From: Candidatus Omnitrophota bacterium
GTDB lineage: Bacteria > Ratteibacteria > UBA8468 > MWAK01
Direction: 5' to 3'
Length of the DNA stretch: 24,885 nt
Assembly (NCBI GenBank): GCA_043797665.1
Contig: JAZDPL010000074.1
Location: 1-24,885, forward strand
Shown one piece after another: positions 7,518 through 24,885 of the stretch. Position numbers and translations under genes: made by a program. The notes under the pieces were generated by a model. It ran no database searches. It was not told the origin of the DNA and saw only the letters and a program-made list of their open reading frames with translations. The first letter of the stretch is position 1. Every line of letters starts with the position of its first letter.

Positions 7518-7588
7518 TGGGAGGTCGCCTAACGGTAGGACTTCAGACTCTGGATCTGAGTATGGTGGTTCGAATCCACTTGTCCCAG
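7518..7588 (+). tRNA. tRNA-Gln(CTG) with an imperfect 3' acceptor strand; probable integration site
   Basis: Anticodon arm TCAGA-CTCTGGA-TCTGA, T arm GGTGG-TTCGAAT-CCACT; acceptor TGGGAGG/TGTCCCA has one G-G mismatch and one G-T pair. Confidence 0.9.
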
Positions 7589-7738
7589 CTATCAGAGTTG
7601 GACAAACAGTATCAATAATCCCTTTTTTGCCTTACCCTGCTTGCGTCGAAGAATTCTTGGAAGGTTTTCAACACTAGCAATGATTGACTCAGTTTTCGGA
7701 GAAAGGTAAAGAACAACTATTATTTGAGGTGACCACGG

Positions 7739-8839
7739 TTATTGATTTTCCGCAAATATCCGGGCAAACTCTTGGGCTGATTTTCTGAAGACTTCCATTA
7801 CAACCGGGGCAAAATGTCCGGGCCTGGTCCTCTGGTCACCCTCAATAATAATCCGGTAAGCCGTCTCGTGGTCAAAGCCGGGTTTATACGGTCGTTTACT
7901 TCTTAAGGCGTCATACACATCTGTGATATTTACGATGCGTCCTTCCATAGGAATGGCTTCTTCTTTCAATCCCGACGGATACCCGGAGCCGTCCCATTTT
8001 TCGTGGTGGGTAAGAGCAATTATCTCCGCAGCTTTCAGATATTCTGAAGAGGACCCTTTAAGGATGCTTGCGCCAATTTTAGCGTGGGTCTTCATAATCT
8101 CGAATTCTTCCGGCGTGAGGGAAGCCGGTTTTAGCAGGATATTGTCCGGTATGCCAACCTTGCCCAGGTCATGCATGGGGCTTCCGTGGAATATCACTTC
8201 CACTTTTTCCGGAGCAAGTCCTAATTCCCTTGCCAGGAACTGAGAGTAATGGCCGATCCTTCTAATGTGGGAACCGGTCTCTTCGTCCCGGTACTCGGCG
8301 GTTACGGTCAGGCGATAGATAGTTTCAATATAGCCGGCTTTTATCTTCTGGTTTGCGCCATCAAGTTCGTGCAGAGATTTACGCAGTTCTTCGGTTCGCA
8401 TCTGTACTTTTTCTTCCAGACCCTTCTGATACTCCCTGTTTTCCAGGACTAACCGACGTTTCTCCAGAACATTCCTTACCGCATGTTGAACTTCATCAAT
8501 ATTGAGCGGCTTCAACACGTACCGGTCTGCACCCTGGTTGAGGGAGGAGACGGCATCACCCAGGTCATCGCTGGCAGTAATAATAATGAAACCGGTATCA
8601 GGCAGGCATTTTTTCGCCTTTTCCAGAAATTCCAAACCGCTTTCCCCAGGCATGTGAATATCGGTTATCACCAGGGACGGTTTTGCTCTCTGGAGAGTTT
8701 CAAAACCTTCCTCGGCATTGCTTGCCTCCTCCACATCGTTGTAACCCAGGTGTTTCAGCGAATGGCTCAAGAAACGCCTTGCTACTTCCTCGTCATCTAT
8801 TATTAATATTTTTTCGTGCTGTTTTTTTTCATTAGTCAT
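7739..8839 (-). CDS. REC + HD-GYP cyclic-dinucleotide phosphodiesterase (RpfG family)
   Basis: N-terminal receiver; ETGSHI.R, MHDLGKVG, HHEKWDGSGYP, DVYDAL...RPYK. Confidence 0.93.
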   Translation of the reverse strand: MTNEKKQHEKILIIDDEEVARRFLSHSLKHLGYNDVEEASNAEEGFETLQRAKPSLVITDIHMPGESGLEFLEKAKKCLPDTGFIIITASDDLGDAVSSLNQGADRYVLKPLNIDEVQHAVRNVLEKRRLVLENREYQKGLEEKVQMRTEELRKSLHELDGANQKIKAGYIETIYRLTVTAEYRDEETGSHIRRIGHYSQFLARELGLAPEKVEVIFHGSPMHDLGKVGIPDNILLKPASLTPEEFEIMKTHAKIGASILKGSSSEYLKAAEIIALTHHEKWDGSGYPSGLKEEAIPMEGRIVNITDVYDALRSKRPYKPGFDHETAYRIIIEGDQRTRPGHFAPVVMEVFRKSAQEFARIFAENQ

Positions 8840-8845
8840 TTATTA

Positions 8846-9859
8846 CTACTCCCATCCTTTTATTTCGCCTATTTCAAAAAAGACCGATTTGGAGTCGGTA
8901 TTGGATACTTTAAAATCTCTTGTTTCCCCTGGAGCCAAATCAGGAATATAATCTACACCGGTGGTTGTCACATGTTCATCGGCATCATAAAACCGAATTG
9001 TAACCGGAACCTTAACATATCTTTTCTTGGAAATATTTTTGATCTTGCCGGCTACATATTGGCCAACAACTTCAAACCGGGATGTGATATCCGGATTAGT
9101 TATAACCTTGTCTCCCGTGGTTATTTCTAAAAAACTAAATTCACCGGTAGAATTCGTGGTGGGGTTACTTTTTTTCGAGGTTCTGGTATGGTATAGATAA
9201 CTACCAACGATGCCAACGATTAAAATCAGAAATAAAGAAACAATTATTGCTCCAAATATTGCATTTTTTCTGCTTTGTGGTTTTTCTTCTTTATCTCCCT
9301 GCCTTTCCCCCTGTTTTTGCAGAAGAGATTCAATAGCTTTATAACAATCCGTACAGATTCCCTGTCTCCGATACTTTCTGTCTAATCTTCTACCGCACTT
9401 CTGGCAGTAATATGTTCCTCCAAATTGCATCCGTAATTTGACTACTAAAGCAGAAAAAGGCCAGGTCTTACGTTGGAACTTATCCGTTCCGAGAAGCATC
9501 CGGATTCCGGACAGGACGGTCTCGAGTTCAAACGGTTTGGTTACGTAGTAATCAGCTCCGAACCCGTAACCTTTCAGCAGATCTTCGTCCTGTGATTTGG
9601 AGGTAAGCATGATTACCGGTAGATTTCGTGTCCGGGGGGTAGCCCTGAGATATTGTAGGACTTGAATACCATCCAGTTTGGGCATCATGATATCCAGAAT
9701 TACCAAGTCCGGTTTTTCGGTATCAATTTTTTTTAAAGCTTCCTGGCCGTCAACCGCCAGAAAAACAGTATGGCCTTCTGCGGTTAATCCTTTTTCCAGT
9801 ATAGTCTGTACTACAAGGTCATCATCAGCTACTACAATTTTAAGGCGTATTTCGGACAT
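8846..9859 (-). CDS. Receiver domain fused to a zinc ribbon, TM helix and FxLYD-like C-terminal domain
   Basis: REC (DD, LDIMMP, TKPF); CQKC...CTDC; hydrophobic AIFGAIIVSLFLILIVGIVG; G.IKN...V.IRFYD...DLAPGET..F. Confidence 0.8.
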   Translation of the reverse strand: MSEIRLKIVVADDDLVVQTILEKGLTAEGHTVFLAVDGQEALKKIDTEKPDLVILDIMMPKLDGIQVLQYLRATPRTRNLPVIMLTSKSQDEDLLKGYGFGADYYVTKPFELETVLSGIRMLLGTDKFQRKTWPFSALVVKLRMQFGGTYYCQKCGRRLDRKYRRQGICTDCYKAIESLLQKQGERQGDKEEKPQSRKNAIFGAIIVSLFLILIVGIVGSYLYHTRTSKKSNPTTNSTGEFSFLEITTGDKVITNPDITSRFEVVGQYVAGKIKNISKKRYVKVPVTIRFYDADEHVTTTGVDYIPDLAPGETRDFKVSNTDSKSVFFEIGEIKGWE

Positions 9860-9862
9860 AAA

Positions 9863-10294
9863 TTAAATTGTATATTTCTCAGGCTGGTTTTTACTCGGGC
9901 CAAAGAGCGTCTGGATTGCAAACAGAACACTGCTTATTTTGAACGGTTTAGTGATGTAATAGTTCGCTCCGAATTCGTAACCGTTTAATAAGTCTTTATC
10001 CTCTGATTTGGAGGTAAGTATGATTACCGGCAGGTTTCTTGTCTGAGGTGTGGCTTTGATGGATTGAAGAACCAGAATGCCGTCTCTTTTGGGCATCATA
10101 ATGTCCAGAATTGCCAAATCCGGTTTTTCATCCGAGATTTTTTTAAACGCCTCTTCTCCGTCACCGGCCAGGAAAACGGTGTGGCCTTCTGCGGTTAACC
10201 CTTTTTCCAGGATGGTCCGTACTACAGGGTCATCATCGGCGACTACGACTTTAAGGCGTATTCCGGATACGGGTTGGTTTTTACGGAACCACAT
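9863..10294 (-). CDS. Single-domain response regulator
   Basis: DDD, LDIMMP, LTSK, ITKPF; close paralog of the adjacent REC. Confidence 0.9.
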   Translation of the reverse strand: MWFRKNQPVSGIRLKVVVADDDPVVRTILEKGLTAEGHTVFLAGDGEEAFKKISDEKPDLAILDIMMPKRDGILVLQSIKATPQTRNLPVIILTSKSEDKDLLNGYEFGANYYITKPFKISSVLFAIQTLFGPSKNQPEKYTI

Positions 10295-10306
10295 TGTTTT
10301 TCCTCC

Positions 10307-11047
10307 TTATTTATTGGTCTTTAAAAAAATCTCCATCTCTTCTTTCAATTGAATGATTTCCCGGTTTAACCTCTGCCAGCTTTTTTCCGGGTCAACCAGA
10401 TTTTTATTGCGGCCCATCGTTTCCAACTCCAGCGCTGCGTCCATAACCTTTTTTGCCCGGAAATTGCCGGCCGAACCTCGAAGACGGTGTGCGGAAAATT
10501 CGAGTTCTTCCGAATTACGATTGTTAATCGCTGCTTCAATGCCGGCAATATATTCCGGGAGTATTTTCAGGAATGACCGAACCAGTTCCGCAGCGAAATC
10601 TGAATCTCCCTGCGCATAATCAGAAAAAACCTTCTTATCGAATGCCGGTTCTTTTTCCGGGGACAAACGTCTGCTGGAAAGTACTCTCTCTATTTTTGAC
10701 TTTAAAGCTTCTATATCGACTGGTTTAACTATGTAACCTTCGGACAAATCAGTTGCCTGCAACATGGATTCATCGGCTTCTTTGGCCGTCAACATAATGA
10801 CCGGGATAGATTTTGTTTGCCGGTTTTCTTTAAGTGTTTTTAATACTTCAGTTCCGTTTAAATCCGGCAGCATTAAATCAAGAAAGATTAAGTCCGGCTG
10901 ATGTCTTTGAGCATCCGCAATTCCCTGTTTACCTTCTGTGGCGGTAATAACTTCGTAATTACCGGATAATTCCAATACTTTTTTTACCAGGCGGCAGAAA
11001 ATCTCTTCATCATCTATCACCAGAATCTTAATTTTTTCTGAAGGCAT
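10307..11047 (-). CDS. REC-Hpt phosphorelay protein
   Basis: Receiver followed by Hpt motif AHRLRGSAGN. Confidence 0.9.
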   Translation of the reverse strand: MPSEKIKILVIDDEEIFCRLVKKVLELSGNYEVITATEGKQGIADAQRHQPDLIFLDLMLPDLNGTEVLKTLKENRQTKSIPVIMLTAKEADESMLQATDLSEGYIVKPVDIEALKSKIERVLSSRRLSPEKEPAFDKKVFSDYAQGDSDFAAELVRSFLKILPEYIAGIEAAINNRNSEELEFSAHRLRGSAGNFRAKKVMDAALELETMGRNKNLVDPEKSWQRLNREIIQLKEEMEIFLKTNK

Positions 11048-11073
11048 CTTAAACTTGATTTATTAAACTCCTA

Positions 11074-11457
11074 CTATGCAGTATTTTTTTCGATACAGGC
11101 GATAAGTTCCTCTATGTTTACCGGTTTGGCTAGAGCCGCGCAGTATGTTTCTCCGACTTTAATTCCGCCCAGCGAATCGGATTCTTCCTTCCTCATAATC
11201 GCGGTTAAGAACACGATTGGAATATGCCTGGTTTGCGCGTCGCTCTTTATCTGAAAAGCCACATCGGAACCTTCCATATCCGGCATCACGATATCAAGCA
11301 GTATCAGGTCGGGTTGGAATACCCGGGCAGCATTAAGACCCTGGGCGCCTTTGTTTTCGGTTTTAACTTCGTATTTGTCGGTCTCCTCAAGATTCAACTT
11401 TACCAGTTGCGTAAAATTTTTTTCATCATCAATAACTAAAATTTTTTTCTTAGCCAT
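11074..11457 (-). CDS. Single-domain response regulator
   Basis: KKILVIDDE, LLDIVMP, FLTA, AKP. Confidence 0.9.
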   Translation of the reverse strand: MAKKKILVIDDEKNFTQLVKLNLEETDKYEVKTENKGAQGLNAARVFQPDLILLDIVMPDMEGSDVAFQIKSDAQTRHIPIVFLTAIMRKEESDSLGGIKVGETYCAALAKPVNIEELIACIEKNTA

Positions 11458-13399
11458 TTTCTTCTCCTTTTATTTCTAAGGTAATAATTACCCGGGTCCC
11501 TTTCCCGGGGTGACTCTTGATATCTATCAGTCCTTTATGGGAATTGATTATATTCTGGGTTACCGATAAACCCAGTCCGGTTCCCCCGGATGTGCTTTTG
11601 GTGGTGAAAAAAGGTTCGAAGATTTTTTTCAGGTGTTCTTCCGGAATTCCAATTCCGGTATCTTCAATTTCCACCGATACCGCCTTTTCTCCGGGTTTAA
11701 AAAAAACTTCGTTGACGCTTTCCTGGGGCTTTTCTATTTGAACATCATTACTGCGGATAATAAGTTTTCCCCCATTAGGCATGGCTTGAATCGCATTTAA
11801 AAATATATTTACAAATACCTGTTCCATTTTATTCCGGTCAATTAAAACCTGCGGCATATCTTTTTTCATTTCCTTGACGATTTCAATATTCGAGAGTTTG
11901 GATTTACTTATTAAACTTAAAGAAACATCCAGGACCTGATTTATATCTTCGGGAAGTAAAGTCAACTTGCTGGCCCTGGAGAAATCAAGAAGCGCGGATA
12001 TGATTTTGTCAGCTCTCTGGACACCGCTTTTAATCATTTCTAAAACTTCCAGGATATTCTTCGGGTCCGAAGAGAGCTTTTTTTCCAGATAATTAACACC
12101 CATAATTATTATTCCCAGGGGATTTCTTACTTCGTGGGCTACACCACTTGCTATATAACCTATGGCGTTTAGCTTGGTACTCTGAATAAGCTGTCCTTGA
12201 GTTTCCTTGAGCTGGGTATAGGCATTTTGGAGTTCTCTTTCGGTTTTTTTCCGGGCAGTGACATTTTTGATTGTGAAACGCATACCGGCAAGGTTTCCTT
12301 GGACATCATATATTGCCAATACGTGATTTTCAATGTTCAATATTTCATTGGTTTTCGTAATTAATTCTCCGTCATCGATGGAAATGGACCCTTCCCGTGG
12401 TAACTGTTCAATCCTTTTTTCAATTTTTTCCCATGTTTCCGGCGGACATATTTTGTGGAAATGTTTCCCGATAAGTTCTTCTTTTTCGTAACCCGAAAGT
12501 TCACCGGCCTGTCTATTTAGAGAAACGATAAAGCCATTTTTATCGAGGGAATAAATCATATCGAAGGCATTTTCAAAAATTTCCCGGTATCTTTGTTCGG
12601 ATTCCTCCAGCTGTCCTTCCAGTCTTTTCTGAGCTTCCAGAAGATGGGTTGTCGTTTCCCAGTTAAAAATTTGCAGCATTCCAACCAGTGCTCCGGTAGA
12701 AATCAGGGTACAAATGGCACGGAATACCTGAACGGGAATTTTTATTATCCACAGGAACGAATCCGCATTGAGCCAGGGAGAAAGAAATATATTGCTTTTG
12801 TTGACAAACAAACCGCCTAAAATGGCATAGATTATAAAAGATAAGCTGGCCGCGACAAAACACTTCTTTACTTTTAATAATCCCGGTTTTTTTTCTTCAG
12901 ATACGTAATATAAATAGAATCCAAGACCGGTTAAAAAACTACCGGGAAAACCTAAAAGGTATCTTGTCCAGATAGTTCCTGTAAGGTGGAAATCAGAAGA
13001 TATAAAACTTAAAATACATACCAGAAGTACCAATGCCGGTGATAACCACCAGCAAAAAAGGTTAATAGGTCTATTCTTTGGTTCCGGAGTTTTTGTTTTG
13101 ATTAAACATAAGATTCGCCGGCCGAATTCCAACAAGAAAAAGTACGAAAGGGTAAGCGTGAACCAGTGGATTTCGTGTGGGAAAAATTCTTCTCCTTTGA
13201 TAAATTCCCACATATCTAAAAATTCGTTTATCCCGTGGATTATGCCAAAAACGGCCAGAAGCCATAAAATATCCGCAAGTTTGAATTGACTTCCTTTTTT
13301 GGGTTGGACAAAAATGGCAATCCCCATTACTATAAATGAAAGGCCGTAAAAGAAGAATACGATATCCAAATGCCCCTGAAACCATTGAACTAAACCCAT
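11450..13399 (-). CDS. Membrane-bound PAS sensor histidine kinase (NtrB-like kinase core)
   Basis: Multi-TM N-terminus, PAS, H-box AHEVRNPL, N-box QVFVNIFLNA, DTGIG, FEPFFTTK, GTGLGL. Confidence 0.93.
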   Translation of the reverse strand: MGLVQWFQGHLDIVFFFYGLSFIVMGIAIFVQPKKGSQFKLADILWLLAVFGIIHGINEFLDMWEFIKGEEFFPHEIHWFTLTLSYFFLLEFGRRILCLIKTKTPEPKNRPINLFCWWLSPALVLLVCILSFISSDFHLTGTIWTRYLLGFPGSFLTGLGFYLYYVSEEKKPGLLKVKKCFVAASLSFIIYAILGGLFVNKSNIFLSPWLNADSFLWIIKIPVQVFRAICTLISTGALVGMLQIFNWETTTHLLEAQKRLEGQLEESEQRYREIFENAFDMIYSLDKNGFIVSLNRQAGELSGYEKEELIGKHFHKICPPETWEKIEKRIEQLPREGSISIDDGELITKTNEILNIENHVLAIYDVQGNLAGMRFTIKNVTARKKTERELQNAYTQLKETQGQLIQSTKLNAIGYIASGVAHEVRNPLGIIIMGVNYLEKKLSSDPKNILEVLEMIKSGVQRADKIISALLDFSRASKLTLLPEDINQVLDVSLSLISKSKLSNIEIVKEMKKDMPQVLIDRNKMEQVFVNIFLNAIQAMPNGGKLIIRSNDVQIEKPQESVNEVFFKPGEKAVSVEIEDTGIGIPEEHLKKIFEPFFTTKSTSGGTGLGLSVTQNIINSHKGLIDIKSHPGKGTRVIITLEIKGEENG

Positions 13400-13472
13400 A
13401 TAGTTTTTATTATGTATTATCGTATCTTAATTGCTTTAAAAAAGTCAAATATTTGCATGGCTTCCTAAAACC

Positions 13473-13500
13473 AAACTAATTGTAACTGGATGGTGGGGTA
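13473..13500 (+). repeat. 28-bp cargo-boundary repeat, copy 1
   Basis: AAACTAATTGTAACTGGATGGTGGGGTA, 26/28 identical to 21498-21525. Confidence 0.8.
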
Positions 13501-13585
13501 GGGGAAGGTAACAAGGGAAGGGGGGGAAGCCTGTTTCCAATTCGAATCTGTCCAACTCTCCCTCCCCGCCAAAAAAAAGAGGGAA

Positions 13586-13765
13586 ACCCAAGTCTATGGC
13601 TCAAGTTCGGGCTATTTAGCCCCTAAAACCCGGTTCGAACCCAACTCTCCTTTTTAACCTGACTGAAAAAACGTGGAAACCTAAGCTGGTAGGCTCAATT
13701 TGGAGATATAAACGTACTTATTTAGTCTCTGGAATCCGGTTCGGATAGCGTCCAATCCTCCCAGC
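13586..13765 (+). repeat. Module-end/att repeat, copy 1 (180 bp)
   Basis: Aligns end to end with 22824-23003 and with 23961-24094; ends GTCCAATCCTCCCAGC. Confidence 0.92.
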
Positions 13766-13965
13766 ATTGATGGAATCAGTGCCTTTTCAGCCAGTATCTG
13801 GAAGGCTGGATGATAGACAGGGCTTAGGTTTTCGTCTTTCAGGTAAAGGTTCGAAAATACTAATACTAATTTGAGTAATTGCCTCTTTTCCTCGCCAGAC
13901 CGGGAAAGGTAAATGTCCTTAGCTTGGATAGTGTACCTCATCATTGGGGAATTATAATTGTCGCA
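13681..13965 (-). pseudogene. C-terminal remnant of a probable large serine recombinase, reading into the repeat
   Basis: AKDIY....EEKRQLLKLV(LV)FSNLYL....L...Y.PAFQIL resembles recombinase-family C-termini; continues in frame as LGGLDAIRT...; 6-bp internal duplication; no catalytic domain. Confidence 0.6.
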
Positions 13966-13967
13966 CA

Positions 13968-14024
13968 TCACCCGTTAATGTCCAGGATGCCAAAAACGCT
14001 GCAGCCGCTGATATCTTTTTCCAT
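13968..14024 (-). pseudogene. 5' stub of a class II glutamine amidotransferase (glutamate synthase domain-1-like)
   Basis: GGGAGA RBS, then MEKDISGCSVFGILDING*, resembling the Ntn SG-C start; ends where the recombinase remnant begins. Confidence 0.55.
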
Positions 14025-14035
14025 GTTCTCCCAAT

Positions 14036-14130
14036 AAAAAAGCCTCCACCGGCAACTCTGCTTCATTGAGTCGGAGCAACTTTGCTTTTGGAGGCTTCTT
14101 CGCCTTCTCTTTATTACTTCCGCTTTGAAA
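14036..14130 (-). promoter_or_regulatory. ANTAR dual-hairpin attenuator
   Basis: P1 TTC-AAAGCG-GAA, 13-nt linker, P2 GGC-GAAGAA-GCC overlapping terminator AAGCCTCCA...TGGAGGCTT-TTTT. Confidence 0.7.
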
Positions 14131-14283
14131 CTACCTACGTCTTTGCCTTATTTTCTTAACTCTTCCCTTCATCTGTTTTGGTCCATAATCAACGAATTCT
14201 TCGCACTGAAAGACGGGAAATATTCTGGGAAAGGTGCATCCTTTATCATGGACGCAAGTAACGCACAATCCTTTTTTCGCCAT
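14131..14283 (-). CDS. Small 4-Cys protein, 50 aa (absent from ORF track)
   Basis: GGGGGTG RBS; MAKKGLCVTCVHDKGCTFPRIFPVFQCEEFVDYGPKQMKGRVKKIRQRRR; starts 13 bp after the upstream stop. Confidence 0.75.
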   Translation of the reverse strand: MAKKGLCVTCVHDKGCTFPRIFPVFQCEEFVDYGPKQMKGRVKKIRQRRR

Positions 14284-14296
14284 AATTGTCACCCCC

Positions 14297-15862
14297 TTAA
14301 CCCAAAATCCGTTCTATTTCCTCCCGGTCGCAATCCATAACGTAGGGAATGCCGGAAACCTCGGCGGCTTCACGGGTCAGAGCAACAATATCCTCTCTGG
14401 AAATATACCTTAAGGCGAATTTCCGTTCACCCGCCATAAGTTGTCTCAAGCCCGTAACCAGCCGGTCGTAGTAGGTGTACATTCCGATGGCACCCACCGG
14501 AATATCTTTGAACTCTTTTCCGTACTTTGCTTTTAGCGTCTCGGCGGAAATGAATATCTGTTCTATCGTATCACCGTATTTCTTATACTCCTCGGGTACC
14601 TTACCCTTTTTTACCAGGTTTCCCACGGTCTTGGCCGCCATCGCCGCCGCAAAAGTGGCTCTGCCCATACAGATAGCTTTAACATAGGGTGCAGCCAGAG
14701 CCAATCCTTTAAAGACCTGGTCTTCCAGAGCAAACCCTCCGGCCATCCCTACCGGCGGTACGTATCCACCCTTTTGCTCAATCTTCTTTAACATCTGGTA
14801 CAGAAAAGACTCCAGTTCCACGGTGGGAATTCCCCACTCGTTCATCATCCTCCAGGGACTCATTCCCGTACCACCGCCGGCTCCATCCACGGTAAGAAGG
14901 TCCATTTTAGATTGAGAAGCACACTTCACCGCTCTGGCCAAATCCGCCGGCCGGTAAGCGCCGGTTTTCAGGGTAACGTACTTAAATCCGAGGTTCCTTA
15001 ACCGTTCCACCTCCTTACAAAACTCTTCCTCCTCAACCATACCCAGCCTTGAGTGGCGTTCAAACTCTTTGATGGCTCCCTCCTGATAAGCCTTCTTCGT
15101 TACCGGGTCCTCCGGGTCAGGATAGACTAAATAACCCCGCTTTTTAAGTTCCCGCGCTCTTTCTAACGTGGGTAACTTCACCTCCCCACCTATATCTTTG
15201 GCACCCTGGCCCCATTTGGGTTCAATCGCTTCCACGCCTAATTCCAGAACGTACTCCGGAACACCTAACCTTCCGTCTTCCACGTTGTACTGGACCACAA
15301 TCGTTCCGTGTCCGCTGTGCCATCTTTTATAACTGGTGACCCGGCGTTCCATTTCCGGAGATTTTATTACCCGTCCATTCTTAATCTCGGCATTGTGGTC
15401 CATACCGCAGACATTCTCACCCACTACCACTATCGTTCCGCAGAGGGATGCGCCGACCGCATTTTCCTCCCAGTTTATTCTTGCCACGTCGGTTGAGCCT
15501 AAAGCGCCGGTAAAGAAGGGGACATCCAATTTGATTTTGTTCTTTCCGCCAATCTCAGTGGAGACATCCACCGCGGGGAAAATTGCGCGGTCAGGGTCTG
15601 CCTCTATTCCTACTGCACCCACGCAGGTACCCTGGATGTTAAAATGAGAAAAGTCTAATGGGTAATCCTTCTCCGCCCCGGCAACAATCCTGCCGAAGGG
15701 TTGCGGGTAAATCAATTCCCTGCCCCGGATACCCGATTTGGCAACTTCACAAAACCCGATACATCCGTCCAAACAAGTAACGCAAAGCCCAGAAACCGGT
15801 GATGGAGTCACCCGGTTTCTGGTATTCGTAGCCGGACTGGCATTTGGCTTACTGTACGACAT
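14297..15862 (-). CDS. Stand-alone FMN-binding glutamate synthase family protein
   Basis: E.KWGQGAK.IGGE, TVDGAGGGTG.SP, AGG, MGRA; N-terminal CxxCxxxCxxxC; GGAGG RBS. Confidence 0.88.
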   Translation of the reverse strand: MSYSKPNASPATNTRNRVTPSPVSGLCVTCLDGCIGFCEVAKSGIRGRELIYPQPFGRIVAGAEKDYPLDFSHFNIQGTCVGAVGIEADPDRAIFPAVDVSTEIGGKNKIKLDVPFFTGALGSTDVARINWEENAVGASLCGTIVVVGENVCGMDHNAEIKNGRVIKSPEMERRVTSYKRWHSGHGTIVVQYNVEDGRLGVPEYVLELGVEAIEPKWGQGAKDIGGEVKLPTLERARELKKRGYLVYPDPEDPVTKKAYQEGAIKEFERHSRLGMVEEEEFCKEVERLRNLGFKYVTLKTGAYRPADLARAVKCASQSKMDLLTVDGAGGGTGMSPWRMMNEWGIPTVELESFLYQMLKKIEQKGGYVPPVGMAGGFALEDQVFKGLALAAPYVKAICMGRATFAAAMAAKTVGNLVKKGKVPEEYKKYGDTIEQIFISAETLKAKYGKEFKDIPVGAIGMYTYYDRLVTGLRQLMAGERKFALRYISREDIVALTREAAEVSGIPYVMDCDREEIERILG

Positions 15863-15877
15863 TTTTCCTCCTTTTCC

Positions 15878-16573
15878 CTACATAATATCCGCTGCCAAAA
15901 TAATGGCTTCCGCTATTTCACGCATAGTTTTGCGTCTATCCATACTGTACTTACGCAGTTGGAGGTATGCCTCTTCTTCTGTCAACCCCTCCTTTCTCAT
16001 CAAAATTCCTTTAGCCCGTTCAATTATTTTCCTTGCCTCTAATTCTTCCTGAATTACCTTACTTTTCACCATCAGTTCCGTGTTTTCAATCGCCACCGCA
16101 GCCTGGTTTGCGATAGCGGTTAAAACATTAATCTCGGTTTCCGTAAAATCATGCGGGTTGGAGGTATAACAATTAATCACCCCGATTACTTTGTTTTTAA
16201 CCGCCAAAGGTACGCAAAGAAGGGAACGTAACCCCTCCCTTTTCGCAATATCCTGGTATTTATACTCTTTTTCTTTGGTTACATCCTTAACCACCATAGG
16301 CTTATTCTCTTTTGCCACTTTCCCGGCAATACCCTCCCCTACTTTTAGAGGCGGTTTCTTGTTATACTCCTCACTTACGCTCTGGGTAGCCCTGATTACC
16401 AGTTCGTTTTTCTTTTCGTCAATGAGCATCAGGGAACAGATGTTTGACTCCATCAATTCCGCGATTACCACCACAACCAGACGCAGGATGTCTTCCAGAT
16501 ACAGGTCTGAGGCTATGGCTTTACTTATCTTTGACAGAGCCTTAATTCGTTCTTCATAAGGCGTCTCTTCCAC
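15878..16573 (-). CDS. GAF-ANTAR RNA-binding antiterminator
   Basis: GAF domain (GEGIAG.VA, SLLCVPL, IANQAAVAIEN) then ANTAR (RKIIERAKGILM......EEEAY..LR..SM); GTG start at 16573 after GAGGTG. Confidence 0.93.
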   Translation of the reverse strand: MEETPYEERIKALSKISKAIASDLYLEDILRLVVVVIAELMESNICSLMLIDEKKNELVIRATQSVSEEYNKKPPLKVGEGIAGKVAKENKPMVVKDVTKEKEYKYQDIAKREGLRSLLCVPLAVKNKVIGVINCYTSNPHDFTETEINVLTAIANQAAVAIENTELMVKSKVIQEELEARKIIERAKGILMRKEGLTEEEAYLQLRKYSMDRRKTMREIAEAIILAADIM

Positions 16574-16611
16574 ATTCACCTCACTAAGGGGTTGTCGCAG
16601 ACAACCCCAAC

Positions 16612-16775
16612 AAAAAAAGGGCGTTATACCCCGACAATGGGAAAGAACGCCCTTGTTCCGGAATAAAAAAGTCCTCTCCGGCATTCTTTGCCGAAAAGGA
16701 CGTCGTTATCCGAGTTTCTGACGTTGAAAAGGAGAATCCTGAGTTAAAGATTCTCCGTCCGCACTAACCTTGTGC
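16612..16775 (-). promoter_or_regulatory. Leader with tandem ANTAR hairpins and terminators
   Basis: GCAC-AAGGTTA-GTGC; TTTC-AACGTCA-GAAA; GGAT-AACGAC-GTCC overlapping terminator 16665-16701; GAAC-AAGGGC-GTTC overlapping terminator 16612-16654. Confidence 0.78.
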
Positions 16776-16798
16776 GCTATGTTTTATTTTACGTTATA

Positions 16799-16828
16799 AT
16801 TATACCTTAAGAATTTGTGTTTTGTCAA
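16799..16828 (-). promoter_or_regulatory. sigma70 promoter of the ANTAR / glutamate synthase operon
   Basis: TTGACA-N18-TATAAT on the minus strand. Confidence 0.8.
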
Positions 16829-16836
16829 ATTTCGTG

Positions 16837-19800
16837 TCAAGTGATGGTTGTTTTTGCTAAGGTGTGATAATAAGTTTGAAGACTGGTAACAGAAAAATGG
16901 CCTTGTCTCAGTTTGCTGATGGCACTGACTGCAGCCTGGGCGCCAGGAATGGTGGTAATAAGAGGGATATTATGGGCTACTGCTACAGCTCGGATGGAGA
17001 CAGTATCTTTCCTGGGTTTTACTCCGGAAGGTGTATTGATAATTAATTGAACTTCTCCGTTTTTAACATAGTCCATAATATTGAGACGGCCTTCGGAGAT
17101 TTTCAAAACTTCTTTTACCGGTATGCCGGCAGCAGCAATCAGAGCAGATGCGGTTCCGCGAGTAGCCAGAATGTCAAATCCTAAGTTTTTCAATTTCCGG
17201 CCGATAGCAGCCGCCGCTGGCTTGTCTTTATTTTTGACACTGATGAAGACATTCCCTTTTAACGGAAGTTTCGTGCCGGCTGCTAACTGGCTTTTAGCAT
17301 AGGCTAAGCCAAATTCCGTATCAATACCCATCACCTCTCCAGTGGAACGCATCTCCGGTCCTAAGACAGCATCAACTCCCAGGAACCGGTTAAAAGGGAA
17401 GACCGACTCTTTTACTGCGGTATACGGAGGCCAGATTTCTTTGGCGAACCCGAGTTTTTCTAACTTCTCGCCCAGCATTATCCGGGTAGCTAACTTAGCC
17501 AGGGGAATGCCGATAGTTTTGCTGACAAAAGGAATGGTACGGCTGGCGCGAGGATTGACCTCTAAGATATAGAGTTCATCATCCTTTACCGCAAACTGAA
17601 TATTCATTAAACCAACGACTTCAAGTTCAGCCGCCAGGGAGTAAGTTGCCTCTCGGATTTGAGTAATAGTTTTGTAGGATAAGGAATGGGGTGGCAAAAC
17701 CATGGCGCTATCCCCGGAATGGATGCCAGCCTCTTCAATATGTTCCATTATCCCGGCCAGGAGAGTAGTCTTACCGTCAGAGATAGCGTCCACATCAACC
17801 TCAGTGGCATCCTCTAAAAATCTATCTATGAGAACCGGCCGTTCTGAAGATGCCGCCACTGCGTACTTAAGGTATTCAGAGAGTTGCTCTTCGTTATAGG
17901 CTATTTCCATTGCCCTGCCGCCCAGAACATAAGAAGGTCGGACCAGAATCGGGTAGCCAATTCTTTTGGCGATGCCGGCAGCTTCTTCAAAGGAAGAGGC
18001 GGTATCGCTGGGTGGTTGTTTAAGACCCAATTTGTCAAGCAGTATCTTGAATAGTTTCCGGTTCTCTGCCTGGTCAATCTTTTCTGGTTTAGTGCCCAGG
18101 ATAGGGACGCCGTTATCTTCTAAATCAAGAGCCAGATTTAAAGGGGTCTGTCCCCCTAACTGGACGATAACTCCCTTTGGTTTTTCTGTGGCTACTATCT
18201 CCAGGATATCTTCTAAGGTGAGAGGTTCAAAATAGAGGCGGTCAGAGATGTCGTAATCAGTAGAGACTGTCTCCGGATTACAATTAATCATAATGCTCTC
18301 GTATCCAGCCTCGCGAAGCGCCAGGGAGGCGTGGACACAGGCATAGTCAAATTCAATCCCCTGACCGATGCGGTTGGGTCCGGCACCCAGGATGATTACC
18401 TTTTCTTTATTGCTTTTGGGTCTGTCTGCCACCTCATTCTCTCTTTCGTAGGTAGAGTAAAAATAGGGGGTGGCAGCAGCAAATTCCGCCGCACAGGTAT
18501 CAACTAATTTATAAGCAGGTCTGAGACCAAGGGTATGACGCAAATTGCGTATCTCTGCCTCTCTCTTGCCGGAGATACAGGCTAATTGATAATCAGAGAA
18601 TCCCAATCGTTTTGCCTCTTCCAGGATATTCTTTAGAGTTTCAATCTCTTTCTTCCCATCAGGCAGGAAAAATTTGTTGATCTCCGGGACAAACCTTTCT
18701 TTAAGATTCTTTTCCTCAGCAACAATTTCCGCAAGGTTGGAGAGAAACCAGGGGTCAATACCGGTGGTTTCATAAGCTTCTTCAATTGAAAGGAAAGTCT
18801 TCAGCCCGGTGTAAAGATAAAAGATACGGTCTGCGGTTGGCCGCCTTATGTATTCAATCAGTTCTTTCTTATCTCTAATGGCCGGTTCCTTATTATCAGC
18901 ACCCGGACCAAAGCGGTTAATCTCCAGAGAACGCAGACCTTTTCCCAGCGCTTCTTTGAATGTCCGGCCAATCGCCATTATTTCACCCACCGATTTCATT
19001 GAGGTGGTAAGAATTGAGTCAGCGAAGGGAAACTTTTCAAAGGTAAAACGGGGAATCTTGACGACACAATAGTCAATAGTTGGTTCAAAGGAGGCAGGAG
19101 TTTTTTGCGTAATATCGTTTGGTATTTCGTCCAGGGTATAACCCACCGCCAGTTTAGCCGCAATCCTGGCTATCGGGAAACCAGTGGCTTTGGAAGCTAA
19201 AGCAGAAGAACGACTTACCCTGGGGTTCATCTCAATAATTACCATCTGTCCGTCCCTGGGGTTAACGGCAAACTGGATGTTACTGCCGCCGGTATCCACG
19301 CCAATGGCTCTGATACAGGTTATGGCAGCATCGCGCATCTTCTGGTATTCCCGGTCGGTAAGGGTCTGGATGGGGGCTACCGTAATACTGTCACCGGTAT
19401 GAATCCCCATCGGGTCAAGGTTTTCTATAGAACAGATTATGACCACATTGTCTTTGCGGTCGCGCATCACCTCAAGTTCAAACTCCTTCCAGCCGATTAC
19501 GGATTCTTCAATCAGGACTTCACTGACCGGTGAAAGGGTTAAACCACGTTCTACCATGGTTTCAAACTCTACTTTGTTATATGCTATTCCACCGCCGGTG
19601 CCACCCAGAGTAAAACTTGGCCGGATGATTAAGGGAAATCCTATCCGGTCGGCAATCTGCCGGGTTTCTTTCAAGGTGTGTGCCCAGCCGCTTTCTGGAA
19701 GGTCAATTCCCGCCTTAAGCATTGTTTCCTTAAAGAGTTTCCGGTCCTCTCCGCGGTTGATAGCCTCTACTGTTGCTCCGATACATTCTACGTGAAATTT

Positions 19801-20127
19801 ATCCAGAACCTTATTTTCCGCAAGTTGCATTGTCAGGTTAAGTCCGGTCTGTCCGCCCAGGGTTGGTAGAAGGGCATCCGGTCGCTCTTTTTCAATAATC
19901 CGGGCTAAAATTTCCGGGGTGAGAGGTTCAACATAAGTGGCGTCAGCCATCTGCGGGTCAGTCATAATAGTAGCCGGGTTACTGTTGACCAGAACCACCT
20001 GATAGCCTTCTTCTTTGAGGGCTTTACAGGCTTGAGAACCAGAATAGTCAAACTCACAGGCCTGGCTGATGACAATCGGACCGGAGCCGATAATTAAAAT
20101 TTTCCTGATGTCAGTTCTCTTACCCAT
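16837..20127 (-). CDS. carB: Carbamoyl-phosphate synthase large subunit
   Basis: 1096 aa; [50 protein letters not shown], two ATP-grasp domains, MGS domain. Confidence 0.98.
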
Positions 20128-20129
20128 TT

Positions 20130-21200
20130 CTAAAGGAATCGCTCAAAGATGCTCAGAGCATCGTTTGGACCCGGACCAGCCTCCGGATGAAACTGAATAG
20201 AGAAGAAACGGTTCTTTTTGCTCTCCATCCCTTCTAAACTGCCATCGTTCAGGTTTATGTGGGTAGGCTCAACTTCACCCGGTAGTGTCTGCGGGTCTAC
20301 ACAGAACCCATGGTTCTGGGCAGTAATGAGTACTCTCCCGGTAGATATATCCTTTACCGGGTGGTTAGCGCCGTGGTGGCCAAACTTTAGTTTGTAAGTC
20401 TTTCCTCCTGATGCCAAACCTAAAATCTGATGTCCTAAACAGATACCTAAAATAGGGATACGACCCAGAATCTTCTGTACCTCCCGGACAATGGAATTGA
20501 GAGCCGCCGGGTCCCCGGGCCCATTGGATAGTACCAGGCAATCAGGTTTTTCGGTTATTATCTCCTCAGATGGTGTCTCCGCAGGCATTACCATAACCTG
20601 AAAGCCAACCCGAGTTAAGTTGCGCAGGATACTGTACTTGACCCCACAATCTAAAACGACCGTCTTGCGGGAGCCTTCCCGGTGCCACCAGTAAGCCTTT
20701 TGGGCAGTCACTCTGGCAACCAAATTCTGACCTACTACACCAGATGCTGCCTGGGCTTTGGCAACCAGTGTGTCCGGATTAGAATCTATGGTGGAGATAA
20801 CTGCCTTCATACTTCCTTTTTCCCGGACATGGATAGTCAGCATCCGGGTATCAACTTCTTCAATTCCTAAAATATTGGCTTCGCAAAAATAGTCATTGAG
20901 GGATTTTTTCGCCCGCCAGTTACTGAAGAATCTGGCTACTTCCCTGACCACAAACCCTTCTACCTGAATGCCGGAAGACTCTACATCTTCATTATTTATC
21001 CCGTAGTTGCCGATTAAAGGGTAGGTCATCATTACAATCTGGCCGCGGTAGGAGGGGTCGGTTAAGATTTCCTGGTAGCCGGTGATGCTGGTATTAAAGA
21101 CTAACTCCCCGGTAGTTTCTATTCCTTTTCCGAAAGCAATACCTTCTACCACCAAGCCGTCTTCTAATGCCAGATAAGCCCTGGTGGTTTTGGCAGGCAT
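20130..21200 (-). CDS. carA: Carbamoyl-phosphate synthase small subunit
   Basis: [41 protein letters not shown]. Confidence 0.98.
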
Positions 21201-21216
21201 AAGAGTTTGAGTGGAT

Positions 21217-21293
21217 AAAAAAACGTCCTTCTCAGCAGATTGCTAAAAAGGACGTCGTTGTCCCATCTCTAAAACAAAACACTAACGTTGTGT
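21217..21293 (-). promoter_or_regulatory. ANTAR dual-hairpin attenuator in the carAB leader
   Basis: P1 ACAC-AACGTTA-GTGT, P2 GGAC-AACGAC-GTCC overlapping terminator CGTCCTTTTTAGCA-ATC-TGCTGAGAAGGACG-T7. Confidence 0.8.
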
Positions 21294-21304
21294 CTTACTC
21301 AAAA

Positions 21305-21333
21305 AGTATATCTTAGGAATTTATATTTGTCAA
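21305..21333 (-). promoter_or_regulatory. sigma70 promoter of carAB
   Basis: TTGACA-N17-TATACT on the minus strand. Confidence 0.8.
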
Positions 21334-21382
21334 GAATTTCAATTCGGTATCAGTTATGCATTAGTTCTGCATAGATTATTGC

Positions 21383-21411
21383 GAGTTGCTGTTTAGGCTA
21401 AACAGCAACTC
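21383..21411. repeat. Perfect 14-bp palindrome with 1-nt centre
   Basis: GAGTTGCTGTTTAG-G-CTAAACAGCAACTC. Confidence 0.85.
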
Positions 21412-21497
21412 AGGGGAGAGTCGGTATGGTGGATGGGACCTGCCCACAAGGAAGGGATTCTGGGAGCCAGCAGAATCCGGTCAAGGAATATTGGAAG

Positions 21498-21525
21498 AAA
21501 CTAATTGCGACTGGATGGTGGGGTA
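21498..21525 (+). repeat. 28-bp cargo-boundary repeat, copy 2
   Basis: AAACTAATTGCGACTGGATGGTGGGGTA. Confidence 0.8.
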
Positions 21526-21537
21526 AATAGGAATTAT

Positions 21538-21862
21538 GGGGGTATCCACTTGACTCCCGTACCACAAGATGTGGTATATATAGGTAAATACTCAGTGAAC
21601 ACCGTCTGATGGTAGTGTAGGGCCTTGTGCCCGTAAAGATTACGCCCATAAAGAGCTACACTACCTCTATACATTACGGTGTTTACCGAATATTTACATA
21701 TATAGGGAATGGAAGAGCTTCGCGATCCCGCGGGAAACTTTTCTATCGTCTTGTCCAACAAGCCGTAGCAATTGACGCTTTGAGGGGCCGAGATATCAGA
21801 GGTTAACATTTCTATGCATAAACCACTATATGTAGGGGTACGTGAGTCAAGTGGATACCCCC
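21538..21862 (+). mobile_element. Internally deleted IS1595-family (ISSod11-like) element / MITE
   Basis: TIRs GGGGGTATCCACTTGACTC(C/A)CGTACC (25/26); ATTAT on both flanks; 21711-21806 encodes RASRSRGKLFYRLVQQAVAID..., an IS1595-type transposase C-terminus. Confidence 0.8.
21584..21697. mobile_element. 114-bp MITE nested in the IS1595 remnant
   Basis: TIRs GTAAATACTCAGTGAACACCGT / GTAAATATTCGGTAAACACCGT; exact 8-bp TSD ATATATAG at 21576-21583 and 21698-21705. Confidence 0.85.
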
Positions 21863-21987
21863 ATTATAAGAATATCTACCTGGTATGGTATCTAAAGATT
21901 GGGCTGGAATTGCAGAAAGTCCTTGATTTTCAATAGCATCTGTTGAGGGCATGGGATGGTTTCAAGCCACTTAAAAGTTCCAAAGTC

Positions 21988-22004
21988 ATCCACCTCTCCC
22001 AGCT
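21988..22004 (+). repeat. tRNA-Gln 3'-end copy (att-like)
   Basis: ATCCACCTCTCCCAGCT versus tRNA 7574-7590 ATCCACTTGTCCCAGCT, 15/17. Confidence 0.7.
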
Positions 22005-22077
22005 CAGCCCCACTTTCAAATCCAACCTGTTTTCTGCGAATACTTTCTCTTAGAACAAATGTAAGACAAAAAAAGAC

Positions 22078-22106
22078 TTGACATACTTTTAGATGTATGG
22101 TATACT
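22078..22106 (+). promoter_or_regulatory. vapBC promoter with operator-like palindrome
   Basis: TTGACA-N17-TATACT; CATAC-N8-GTATG within the spacer. Confidence 0.8.
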
Positions 22107-22125
22107 TTTGTAAAAAAGGAGGAAT

Positions 22126-22362
22126 ATGACTACGGCAATCGTAACCACAAAAGGACAGATTGTCATACCTTCAAGGATTCGCCGGAGATTTAACATTAAA
22201 AGAGGGACAAAGATATATATTGAAGAAAGACGCGACGAATTAGTTCTTAAAGCTGTTACTCCGGAATATTTTGAAAAAATAGCAGGAGTTTTACAAACCA
22301 GAGGAAAATTATCAAAAACGATACTTGAAGAACGTTCTAAAGATAAAGAAAGAGAGGCTTAA
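22126..22362 (+). CDS. AbrB/MazE/SpoVT-type antitoxin
   Basis: VTTKGQIVIP..IR....I..G motif; AGGAGG RBS; upstream of a PIN toxin. Confidence 0.9.
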   Translation: MTTAIVTTKGQIVIPSRIRRRFNIKRGTKIYIEERRDELVLKAVTPEYFEKIAGVLQTRGKLSKTILEERSKDKEREA

Positions 22363-22366
22363 AAAG

Positions 22367-22765
22367 ATGAAAAAAATTCTTGATGCGCACGGTCTTATGG
22401 TATTTCTTGAAAAAGAGGCCGGTTTTGACAAAGTTGAATCTTTTTTTGTTACCGCCGTAGAAAAAGATAATTATTTGTTGATGACCACGGTGAACTTTGG
22501 TGAGGTTTACTACATTGTTTTGCGCGAATGCGGACAAGATAAAGCACACGAAATTGAGAAGATAATCAGAACTCTCCCCATAGAAATAATTGATGTGAAT
22601 TTGGAACTCGCCCGGGAAGCCGGTCGTTTCAAAGCCACCAGGAAAATTTCCTACGCTGACTGTTTTGCTGCTGCTTTAACAAAACTTTACAAAGGAGAGT
22701 TGGTAACCGGGGATAAAGAATTTAAGGTGTTGGAAGATGAGATAAAAATTTCGTGGCTAATATAA
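22367..22765 (+). CDS. vapC: PIN-domain toxin
   Basis: ILDA, N.GEVYY, SYADCFAAA and LVTGD.EF acidic PIN residues; start at ATG 22367. Confidence 0.9.
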   Translation: MKKILDAHGLMVFLEKEAGFDKVESFFVTAVEKDNYLLMTTVNFGEVYYIVLRECGQDKAHEIEKIIRTLPIEIIDVNLELAREAGRFKATRKISYADCFAAALTKLYKGELVTGDKEFKVLEDEIKISWLI

Positions 22766-22823
22766 TTTTTAGAGAAATTGACTAAAATGTATTGAGGAGT
22801 AATTTATGGATAAGGATGAATTG

Positions 22824-23003
22824 ACCCAAGCCTGTGGCTCAAGTTCGGGCTATTTTGCCCCTAAACCCTGGTTCGAATCCAACTCTCCCTCTTACCTGAC
22901 CGGAAAAACGGCGGAAACCTAAGCTGGCAGGCTCAATTTGGGGATATAAATGTACTTATTCAATCTCCGGAAGACGGTTCGGATAGCGTCCAATCCTCCC
23001 AGC
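22824..23003 (+). repeat. Module-end/att repeat, copy 2 (180 bp)
   Basis: Aligns with 13586-13765; internal TGGTTCGAATCCAACTCTCCC; ends GTCCAATCCTCCCAGC. Confidence 0.92.
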
Positions 23004-23100
23004 TGCAAAGGTCATAAATTAAAAAAGAACCCCCGGTTTATCTATTCGTTACTGAAAACGCACAAGGAATTGCTCCGGGGTACACCATCCTGATATAACA

Positions 23101-23724
23101 CTACTTTAGATTATCCGCTGCGAAACTCCAATTGATCAATTTTTCGAGAACAGCGTTGAGGTAATCCGCGCGTCGGTTCTGATAGTCCAAATAGTAGGCA
23201 TGTTCCCACACGTCGATGGTCAATATCGGCTTCATCCCCTTGGTCAAAGGCACATCGGCATTACTGGTCTTGACCACCTTGAGCTTGCCACCATCCAGCA
23301 CAAGCCACGCCCAGCCGCTGCCGAACTGACTCATTGCTGTAGCCGCCAACTCCTTCCTGCATATGTCTAAGGTTCCAAAGGAAGCCTCAATCTTTATTTT
23401 TAATACTGCAGGTGGTTCACCACCGCCCTTCGGAGTCAAACTGTTCCAGTAAAATGCGTGGTTCCACGCTTGCGCGGCATTATTGAAAATCGCAGTCTTA
23501 TCCACTTTACCGGATGTTGCGGTTATGATTTTTTCCAACGGCAAGGGCGCAAACTCAGTTCCTGCTATCAGCTTATTCAGGTTATCGACATATGTTTTGT
23601 GATGCTTGTCATAATGGAAAGAAATCGTATTTGCGGTTATTACTGGGTCCAGCGCGTTATTTGCGTAGGGCAGTGATGGTAGAACATGCGGAACGGCACT
23701 TTCAATCTTGTCATCGCTCATCAT
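23101..23724 (-). CDS. sodB: Superoxide dismutase, probably Fe-type
   Basis: [34 protein letters not shown]. Confidence 0.93.
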
Positions 23725-23823
23725 TTTTCCTCCAATGTGGTGAAATAAAAGCCGCTAACGCTATTTTTTAGCGGCACACCGCTTGCGGCCTATTTGCTGC
23801 AAGGGCTTATTGGAAAACCGACT

Positions 23824-23961
23824 TCAGGTCTTAAGGAATGCCAGCAGGTCGGCGTTGAGCTGGTCTTTGTGCGTGTCCGCAAGGCCGTGAGGTGCGCCCG
23901 CGTAGATCTTTAGGGTCGTGTTCCTGACCAGTTTCGCTGAACGGAGAGCCGCGGCACCGAT
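23824..23961 (-). pseudogene. C-terminal 45 aa of a non-heme haloperoxidase-like alpha/beta hydrolase
   Basis: [45 protein letters not shown]; cut where repeat copy 3 begins. Confidence 0.8.
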
Positions 23962-24094
23962 TCGAATCCACCTTTTCCTCATCAACCTGACCGGAAAAAC
24001 AGCGGAAACCTAAGCTGGCAGGCTCATCTTGGGGATATAGACGTACTTATTCAGTCCTTGGAAGGCGGTTCGGATAACGTCCAATCCTCCCAGC
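23961..24094 (+). repeat. Module-end/att repeat, copy 3 (134 bp, 5'-truncated at TTCGAATCCACC)
   Basis: Aligns with the 3' part of copies 1 and 2; ends GTCCAATCCTCCCAGC. Confidence 0.9.
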
Positions 24095-24106: not shown

Positions 24107-24373
24107 TTAAGGGAAAAATCGATAAATATCTTTTCGGTGGAGACACCGGACGAAGAGAATAACGTTATCCTGCTGAACAATTCCTAACCGATAATCACCC
24201 ACTCTAAGGCGAAAATGGTCTTTTACGCTTTGAATTTTCACTACACCCGAAATTTCTTTTAAGGAATGGGATTGTTCAATTTGGGCAATCAAATACTCTA
24301 TTCTTTTTCTGATGCTTTTTTCGGTTATCTTTTTAATATCCTTTGCAAAAGAGCCGGTGAACTCAATCTGCAT
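24107..24373 (-). CDS. RelE/ParE-family toxin
   Basis: IEFT.SF.KDIKK, FRLRVGDYRLG, HRKDIYR.FP. Confidence 0.9.
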   Translation of the reverse strand: MQIEFTGSFAKDIKKITEKSIRKRIEYLIAQIEQSHSLKEISGVVKIQSVKDHFRLRVGDYRLGIVQQDNVILFVRCLHRKDIYRFFP

Positions 24374-24566: not shown

Positions 24567-24614
24567 CGGGACCTCCGTATATCTTTTTTTCTGCAAGGAA
24601 TTTAAACTTCCACT

Positions 24615-24840: not shown

Positions 24841-24885
24841 CCTAATAGTAAATAAAATAGTATACAAGCGGAATATATGGAGTCC

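Follow-up and report, generated by a model that had tools for sequence, protein, structure and literature searches.

The stretch analysed here (the window) is the entire 24,885-nt contig C44 (JAZDPL010000074.1) of a Candidatus Omnitrophota assembly (GCA_043797665.1, referred to as G000; 2.69 Mb, 86% complete; C75, C90 and similar labels denote its further contigs), and its subject is a tandem array of gene modules downstream of a tRNA-Gln(CTG) gene. The array is best explained, with a probability of roughly two in three, by serial accretion of autonomous elements carrying large serine recombinases (LSRs), followed by decay to integrase-less islets that resemble cis-mobilizable elements (CIMEs). 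Three observations carry this explanation: the repeated arms that close the modules encode LSR tails, LSRs of both families left as stubs in the window exist in a form reading through tRNA-Gln, and modules differ between genomes exactly at the repeated cores. The steps of the mechanism that would follow from these observations are put forward below as a proposal.

Attachment arms and recombinase remnants

The tRNA-Gln(CTG) gene (7518..7589, plus strand) is the target and attL of the array, with a T-loop motif directly adjoining the core (B spacing). A first-pass annotation, made from the letters alone, had reported that the core TCCA-N4-TCCCAGC recurs in direct orientation behind this gene, and this was confirmed: five matches were found in the window, all on the plus strand and ending at 7589, 13765, 22003, 23003 and 24094, a number reached in 0 of 100 shuffles (shuffle mean 0.01). 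The array does not end at 24094. Contig C90, when reversed, continues it with cores at 597 (type A), 2599 (type B) and 3915 (type B) followed by hisF, and the whole comprises seven junctions from tRNA-Gln(CTG) to hisF, spanning C44 and C90 across an insertion sequence. The left end of this insertion sequence (24664..24885, plus strand) breaks C44, its right end opens the reversed C90, and the same 12-bp target duplication is present on both sides; because the insertion sequence has several copies, continuity of the two contigs is only inferred. Cargo on C90 consists of an FGE-sulfatase-domain protein, a prepilin-type protein, ParE and HicA toxins and a PD40 protein. No intact element was found in this array.

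Arms of two types precede the cores. Type A was found at 13586..13765, at 22824..23003 (88% identical to the 180-bp repeat at 13586-13765) and, shortened, at 23957..24094 (83%), all on the plus strand. These are the three copies of the conserved repeat noted at first pass, where it was attributed to three of the four module-closing cores; that holds for type A, but a conserved arm of another kind, type B (21894..22003, plus strand), ends in the 22003 core and has two further copies on C90 (92% and 84%). Read on the minus strand from the core and in the frame of the core, type A arms encode a 27-residue LSR C-terminal tail (13681-13764 in the first copy) that is 74-89% identical to the end of LSR fragment P0001, the best match being 89% over 27 aa. 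The minus strand of the type B arm codes for another LSR tail, which by eye resembles those of P0127 and P0137. Across 10 copies of the type B arm, 24 of 51 variant codons were synonymous against an expected 0.25 (p ~4e-4, the copies being related and not independent), so these arms diverged while still coding, under protein-level constraint. Rfam matched two tRNAs only and no other structured RNA, and structured RNA was thereby ruled out as the identity of the repeat.

At every junction a T-loop-like 8-mer stands off from the core by 5 bp more than it does in the tRNA. The shift was first noticed in the window, at the four junctions that had been located from the core without reference to it; with a pattern that itself requires it, the counts are 7/7 sites in G000 and 6/6 in G001 (a same-genus genome with the same flanks, murJ-tRNA and hisF), with 0 in reversed controls. 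In serine integrases the outer motif of the attP half-site lies 5 bp further out than that of attB (PMC3783163; here and below, statements on published systems refer to the accessible portions of the cited texts), and the displacement corresponds to this P-versus-B shift. Each repeat is accordingly read, from the sequence, as the phage-side half of an LSR attachment site. All seven sites of this P-form pattern in G000 lie within the array and six occur in G001; none was found in 63 other genomes of the class and there were 0 matches in viral contigs. A repeat scattered over the genome with no link to tRNA-Gln, which would have spoken against the original proposal, was thus not found; outside the array only partial arm pieces were seen, on C61. 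The four variable core bases go with the arm type, and those of the RelE module differ between G000 and G001; the crossover therefore probably lies within the last 7 bases of the core.

Type A arms also hold degenerate inner copies of the att motif (13540-13562, 13634-13651 and 22868-22889), one P-spaced and one tRNA-spaced, at which arms are cut short in several loci; these may be fossil junctions.

Two modules of the window keep recombinase stubs, one more than had been noted before. The stub at 13766..13950 (minus strand) belongs to the P0001/P0259 family (hidden Markov model (HMM) match, iE 4e-13), is in frame with the type A tail and is 65% identical over 89 aa to P0001, a 202-aa fragment; stub and tail together appear to reconstitute an attP-like junction. 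Full-length relatives of P0001 and this stub have Resolvase, Recombinase and Zn-ribbon domains, and P0259, 60% identical to P0001, terminates in an antisense tRNA-Gln. One contig from sequencing run X1, possibly of another organism, joins 7589 to 13782 via codons resembling the last ones of P0259. The second stub (7590..7680, minus strand, right limit approximate) is the decayed 3' end of a C75-type LSR gene at the left end of module 1. It was recognized by DNA alignment with the C75 LSR, G006:C3, L072 and L083 (L072 matches at 84% over 57 bp, and the stub of L072 is itself 63% identical to P0002 over 35 aa); by itself it gave no protein HMM detection. Stub lengths differ among G000 (7590 and 13766), G006, L072 and L083, which argues for repeated decay.

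Both tRNA-Gln(CTG) genes of G000 serve as targets. On C75 an intact 555-aa LSR with Resolvase, Recombinase and zinc-ribbon domains reads through the second of them, whereas the window itself holds only stubs; the only two Resolvase-domain matches in G000 are both in long frames. PF07508 is insensitive to this family, the C75 LSR scoring only E 1e-3. LSR homologues end in an antisense tRNA or in a D-x-x-R-T tail, and 26 of 50 LSR loci end at an opposite-strand tRNA or tmRNA. A crude regular expression, with some wrong calls, assigned 64 of 121 homologue ends to the tRNA form, 14 to the P form, 2 to both and left 41 unclassified; a second tally (n=150) gave 39, 16 and 95. These two kinds of ending place the att site inside the end of the gene, and integration would strand the tail at the far side. 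One further motif, symmetric and short-spaced to the right of the core, is present in C75 and G006 and not in other loci, and no weight was placed on it.

The C75 LSR element (G000:C75:26669-28535; L007:4670-6536) encodes a ThiF-domain protein and an E2 family E-like protein, a prokaryotic ubiquitin-like pair, followed by a large ATPase-like gene and an M48 peptidase. The tRNA-Gln of the window has an acceptor-stem mismatch at 7583-7586 that the C75 tRNA-Gln does not share. Ectopic pieces of tRNA-Gln 3' ends, each followed by a small gene pair, were seen at G000:C15:215-244 and on G001:C198, and are possible secondary landing sites.

Turnover of modules between genomes

The murJ-tRNA region of G001 is 90% identical to the window up to 7590 and then passes into an unrelated first module, the break falling exactly at the core. 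The same gene order without gain or loss of modules at the cores, an outcome that would have told against accretion, was therefore not what the comparison gave. Beyond this, the distal array of G001 has four type B cores before hisF, and the RelE module (97%) is the only one in common with the window; there it stands behind a type B arm instead. The left ends of modules had been described as not conserved, which does not hold generally: the first 200 bp of module 5, the RelE module, are 99% identical in G001, and two metagenome loci also carry the left end of module 1. At the second tRNA-Gln, the place of the intact LSR of G000 is taken in G001 by a recombinase-free module of 2.1 kb with a box, a type B arm and a closing core; G006 has a 45-aa stub only.

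The nitrogen cluster of module 2 is 94-98% identical in G001 and is followed there by other DNA, the carAB cluster passing through a degenerate box into DNA that in G000 is located on C22; contigs of three runs from groundwater populations also break at 21350-21354. VapBC lies in G001 behind another operon with no core in front. The insertion-sequence site at 24664 is empty in G001 and in contigs of two runs. All evidence from sequencing runs consists of contigs, the best run holding 0.34 of the words; among the run contigs listed, no long piece covered module 1 or module 4, which is uninformative.

Accretion weighed against other explanations

In the proposed mechanism the recombinases would be LSRs specific for tRNA 3' ends, with attP inside their own last codons. 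The element circle would recombine with the tRNA end by a crossover in the last 7 core bases, after which the body of the gene would read into the tRNA and its tail would be left at the far end. If the enzyme reads the tRNA T-loop, the regenerated tRNA end would stay a target and newer elements would displace older ones. Residents would then lose the recombinase and most of their body, leaving a CIME-like islet of arm, core and 0-200 bp of gene end. Interiors may be refilled by rearrangement, partly at a dispersed 28-bp box, importing host genes such as carAB. Any remaining movement would need an LSR in trans, for example the intact C75 LSR, and would probably remove stacks from the tRNA side and not single inner modules.

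The arms, the stubs and the G001 breaks at cores all support the serial addition at one tRNA target suggested at first pass, and the tails and the two stubs bear out the serine recombinase suggested with it. The same annotation had carried the caveat that the modules might be decayed full-size islands, and this fits better than its headline of mobile cassettes because the arms encode tails, type B arms were constrained, two stubs remain and part of the cargo is relocated host DNA.

Several results weigh against accretion followed by decay. An intact recombinase with the same C-terminus had been proposed as something to look for; none with a type A or B tail was found in G000, and the tRNA-Gln loci of the class yielded none either. 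The C75 contig does not include the attR of its element, and attR copies sought in 50 intact-LSR loci were not found, so that the crossover is placed by inference only. Protein HMMs detected a stub at 1/8 junctions of the G000 array (one more by DNA alignment) and at 0/8 in G001-type loci; most junctions thus have no detectable stub, whereas random decay should leave more. Type A arms have no synonymous bias (15/44, p 0.22). Finally, modules shared with G001 are 94-98% identical against 88-90% for flanking core DNA, which suggests recent exchange.

The array is not an integron, and the integron-like platform that headed the first-pass annotation did not stand. Integrons and CALINs comprise co-oriented repeats bounding gene units, IntI, hairpin attC sites and mostly promoterless cassettes. 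They share with the array co-oriented repeats that bound variable gene units rich in toxin-antitoxin (TA) genes, and differ in their tyrosine chemistry, that of the array being serine chemistry. The best TIGR02249 score for an IntI-type tyrosine integrase in G000 was 85.5 bits against a cut-off of 265, and the cut-off was exceeded in 0/2 genomes (G000 being 86% complete). Folding of five arm strands gave z-scores of +1.06, +0.31, +1.32, +1.15 and -1.26, with no attC-like hairpin. Promoter-like sites were found at 13448 (module 1), 21333, 22078 (module 3) and 24643, and three of these rank within the five best scores of a pattern scan; the genes thus have promoter-like sites of their own, unlike mostly promoterless cassettes.

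Unlikely, on our assessment, is a genuine cassette system in which an LSR supplied in trans produces, excises and inserts units that have no recombinase, integron-like but with the tRNA 3' end as attI. It would account for the small, TA-rich, stub-free modules (0.6-2 kb) of G000 and G001 and for the RelE module standing behind different arms in the two genomes, but plain accretion also yields a module behind different arms. VapBC and carAB lie in G001 outside any att-bounded unit, and the codons of type B tails evolved under constraint. No circle or core-to-core joint was present among those listed from contigs of 4 runs, which are weak data for this purpose.

The best support for cassettes comes from outside the window, from Thermoanaerobaculia. 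Matches to the junction pattern comprised 20 metagenome rows and 26 genome rows, many of them from this group, in which 25/201 genomes matched (49 matches against 3 in controls); the 25 include the unpublished G243, G204 and G247, on which no claim rests. In 29 loci of this type chosen by the pattern, some of them closely related to one another, 77 sites were on one strand and 0 on the other, and tRNA-Gln(CTG) lay upstream in 14. Their 62 modules have a median length of 1.18 kb and carry TA pairs, VanZ, P450, DapB and redoxin; LSR sequence was present in 1/62, a frameshifted gene reading into tRNA-Gln(CTG) in L104. Two arrays with unlike neighbours share a VanZ module that begins at the core (94% over 571 bp), and TA modules turn up repeatedly at the starts of modules in several genomes; the right arms of the shared VanZ modules differ, however, which speaks against the cassette reading. 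LSRs were found by alignment search in 36/201 Thermoanaerobaculia genomes, a tally that includes the unpublished G073. Apart from the frameshifted LSR in L104, LSR loci ending in tRNA-Gln(CTG) numbered 0 of the 30 Thermoanaerobaculia loci taken. Given its insensitivity to the family, the PF07508 result of 1/5 in Thermoanaerobaculia shows little.

Units of 105-112 bp between two att sites, with a hairpin directly after the core, were seen in L088, L089, L096, L098, L104 and L183; these 'empty' modules sometimes stand in near-identical tandem copies.

A bolder version, which we hold to be doubtful, would see a serine-recombinase counterpart of integrons driven by tRNA-end LSRs. Reading the universal T-loop, these would restore a target with each insertion, and recombinase-free units of 0.1-3 kb, keeping only the P arm, would be captured, exchanged between species and stacked in trans in lineages as far apart as Ratteibacteria and Thermoanaerobaculia; in this array the box would feed in host genes, and essential genes once captured, carAB among them, would lock the stack against excision.

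Decidedly improbable is that, after one or two true integrations, the array grew and was shuffled with no further recombinase activity, its arms and 28-bp boxes serving as substrates for homologous recombination or gene conversion. The upstream neighbour of carAB does switch at a degenerate box between G001 and G000, arms are cut short at internal att-like motifs, and near-identical tandem units of about 110 bp occur in Thermoanaerobaculia; but the breaks coincide exactly with core ends, several donors are required for the two types of arm and the two families of LSR stub, and P-form sites belong to tRNA-Gln arrays, most of the 45 boxes having none next to them. An assembly artefact, by which the module order of this metagenome-assembled genome would result from joining at repeats, can be dismissed almost entirely: the comparison runs were other than the source reads, none with >0.34 of the words, and relatives break at 21350-21357, but the repeat copies differ by 12-17% and G001 has the same architecture between the same flanks.

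Accretion with subsequent decay has close published counterparts. The same architecture is already known from the Dehalococcoides ssrA islands (McMurdie et al. 2011, PMC3146451), which stand in tandem behind ssrA and are bounded by repeats of its 3' end; 15 islands have no integration module and were read there as cis-mobilizable, accreted elements, and 16 keep a recombinase. Shared with the array are tandem units bounded by 3'-end repeats of the target RNA gene, a conserved motif upstream of the repeat, and a reverse-strand, CcrB-like LSR (DsiB) that overlaps attL and is variable at its C-terminus, to which the C75 LSR, P0259 and the 13766 stub correspond. The Dehalococcoides target is tmRNA and its elements have a six-gene module with DsiA, whereas the target here is tRNA-Gln; no second small serine recombinase was found in G000, and the neighbours of the C75 LSR are ThiF, E2-like and M48 genes. 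No module of this array keeps its recombinase, modules measure 0.6-8 kb and they include relocated host core genes. The stranded tail and the 5-bp half-site shift are not among the features described in the accessible portion of that paper. In CIME accretion (PMC5704250) an element integrates and decays with attL and attR kept, and a new element enters beside the target gene end. Integration and transfer genes are lost and att sites kept, as here; that review concerns conjugative or mobilizable elements, whereas this array is without transfer genes. As far as these accounts extend, the array works like the Dehalococcoides ssrA arrays and CIME accretion.

Phage LSRs (A118/LI, PMC3783163) have the resolvase and zinc-ribbon domains and the 5-bp P/B shift in common with the array, but here attP lies in the last codons of the gene, integration is aimed at a tRNA end and the junctions do not share a conserved right half-site. 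Tycheposons (bioRxiv 10.1101/2020.12.28.424599) and the additive flexible islands of Alteromonas (PMC4898812) likewise involve repeated tRNA integration that displaces older elements, with partial tRNA repeats, integrase fragments and strain-variable cassettes; the repeats here have about 11-15 shared bases and an arm contributed by the element, where those systems have partial tRNAs of some 40 nt, and this array holds no replication module. SCC/ECC composite islands (PMC6222049) are LSR-driven, with several attR in a row and att-keeping remnants, but use a CcrAB pair and an rlmH target, and P0002 scores 70 bits against a CcrB cut-off of 900. In the open-access literature no paper on tRNA-end LSR arrays with stranded tails was found.

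One genome supplies a set of enzyme and sites: an intact LSR, a tRNA target and seven candidate partner sites. With this set it could be decided if the islets without integrase that stand at tRNA ends are fossils or live cassettes, which for Dehalococcoides has been an open question since 2011. An LSR that targets tRNA 3' ends and reuses its own attL would allow serial gene stacking. The known range of such arrays now takes in genomes of Thermoanaerobaculia and of Ratteibacteria-like bacteria, and core genes can come to lie within the arrays.

Cargo and dispersed elements

The cargo calls of the first pass (signalling, nitrogen/carAB, VapBC, superoxide dismutase, RelE pair) hold. Module 1 (7739..13399, minus strand) encodes an RR-HD-GYP protein, four response regulators (one with Hpt) and a PAS histidine kinase. 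Module 2 (13993..21357, minus strand) holds the nitrogen cluster, a glutamate-synthase-like gene, GAF-ANTAR, carB and carA, the last two named from their sequences. Module 3 (22126..22765, plus strand) carries an AbrB/MazE antitoxin and a PIN toxin (VapBC), module 4 (23101..23724, minus strand) an Fe/Mn superoxide dismutase, and module 5 (24107..24596, minus strand) a ParE/RelE toxin with a RelB-like antitoxin. Junction genes had been described as truncated; the only one visibly cut is a 3' fragment of a non-heme chloroperoxidase gene (23827..23961, minus strand; E 4e-16 to chloroperoxidase F), which is cut off at an att-like motif inside the arm, and the other junction-side genes look full length.

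Part of the cargo, the carA/carB cluster, appears to be relocated host DNA and not foreign: carA of the window is the sole full copy in G000, and its carB is 71% identical to that of a family member against 53% for the second carB. This second, divergent carB (52%), without carA, is at G000:C89:39787-42999, and a carA 3' fragment is at C63:2388-2594. The leaders of GAF-ANTAR (16671-16740) and carA (21222-21300), both on the minus strand, close with strong terminators that resemble each other, and paired small hairpins stand ahead of these. The nitrogen cluster is likely to be under ANTAR antitermination. An open reading frame for a 50-aa cysteine-rich protein (14134-14283), downstream of the glutamate-synthase-like gene, had no NCBIfam match.

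The 28-bp box occurs twice in the window (13473..13500 and 21498..21525, plus strand) and belongs to a genome-wide family beside outward-facing -35 elements. At <=6 mismatches 45 sites were found in G000, 34 of which adjoin a -35-like pentamer (background 3.3%); unlike the att arms, the box is thus scattered over the genome. It matched six genome-contig stretches (Ratteibacteria, Omnitrophota and G001 records) and had no match in viral contigs. The box may bear some resemblance to oriT, dif or cos sites. Boxes cluster on one strand at G000:C61:56000-81900, downstream of tRNA-Asn, and at C52:36000-58500, and they also flank tRNA 5' fragments on C79 and C40.

A MITE-like element of 335 bp with 43-bp terminal inverted repeats (21533..21867) is inserted in the type B arm and is not present in other type B arms. 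The insertion sequence whose copies occupy 1-2505 and 24664-24885 is of the DDE type, with a DUF6788 gene, a 568-aa transposase and 40-bp inverted ends; other ends of it lie on C25, C38 and C90, and shorter related ends on C38 and C69. Its copy at 24664 sits in the edge of a 28-bp box.

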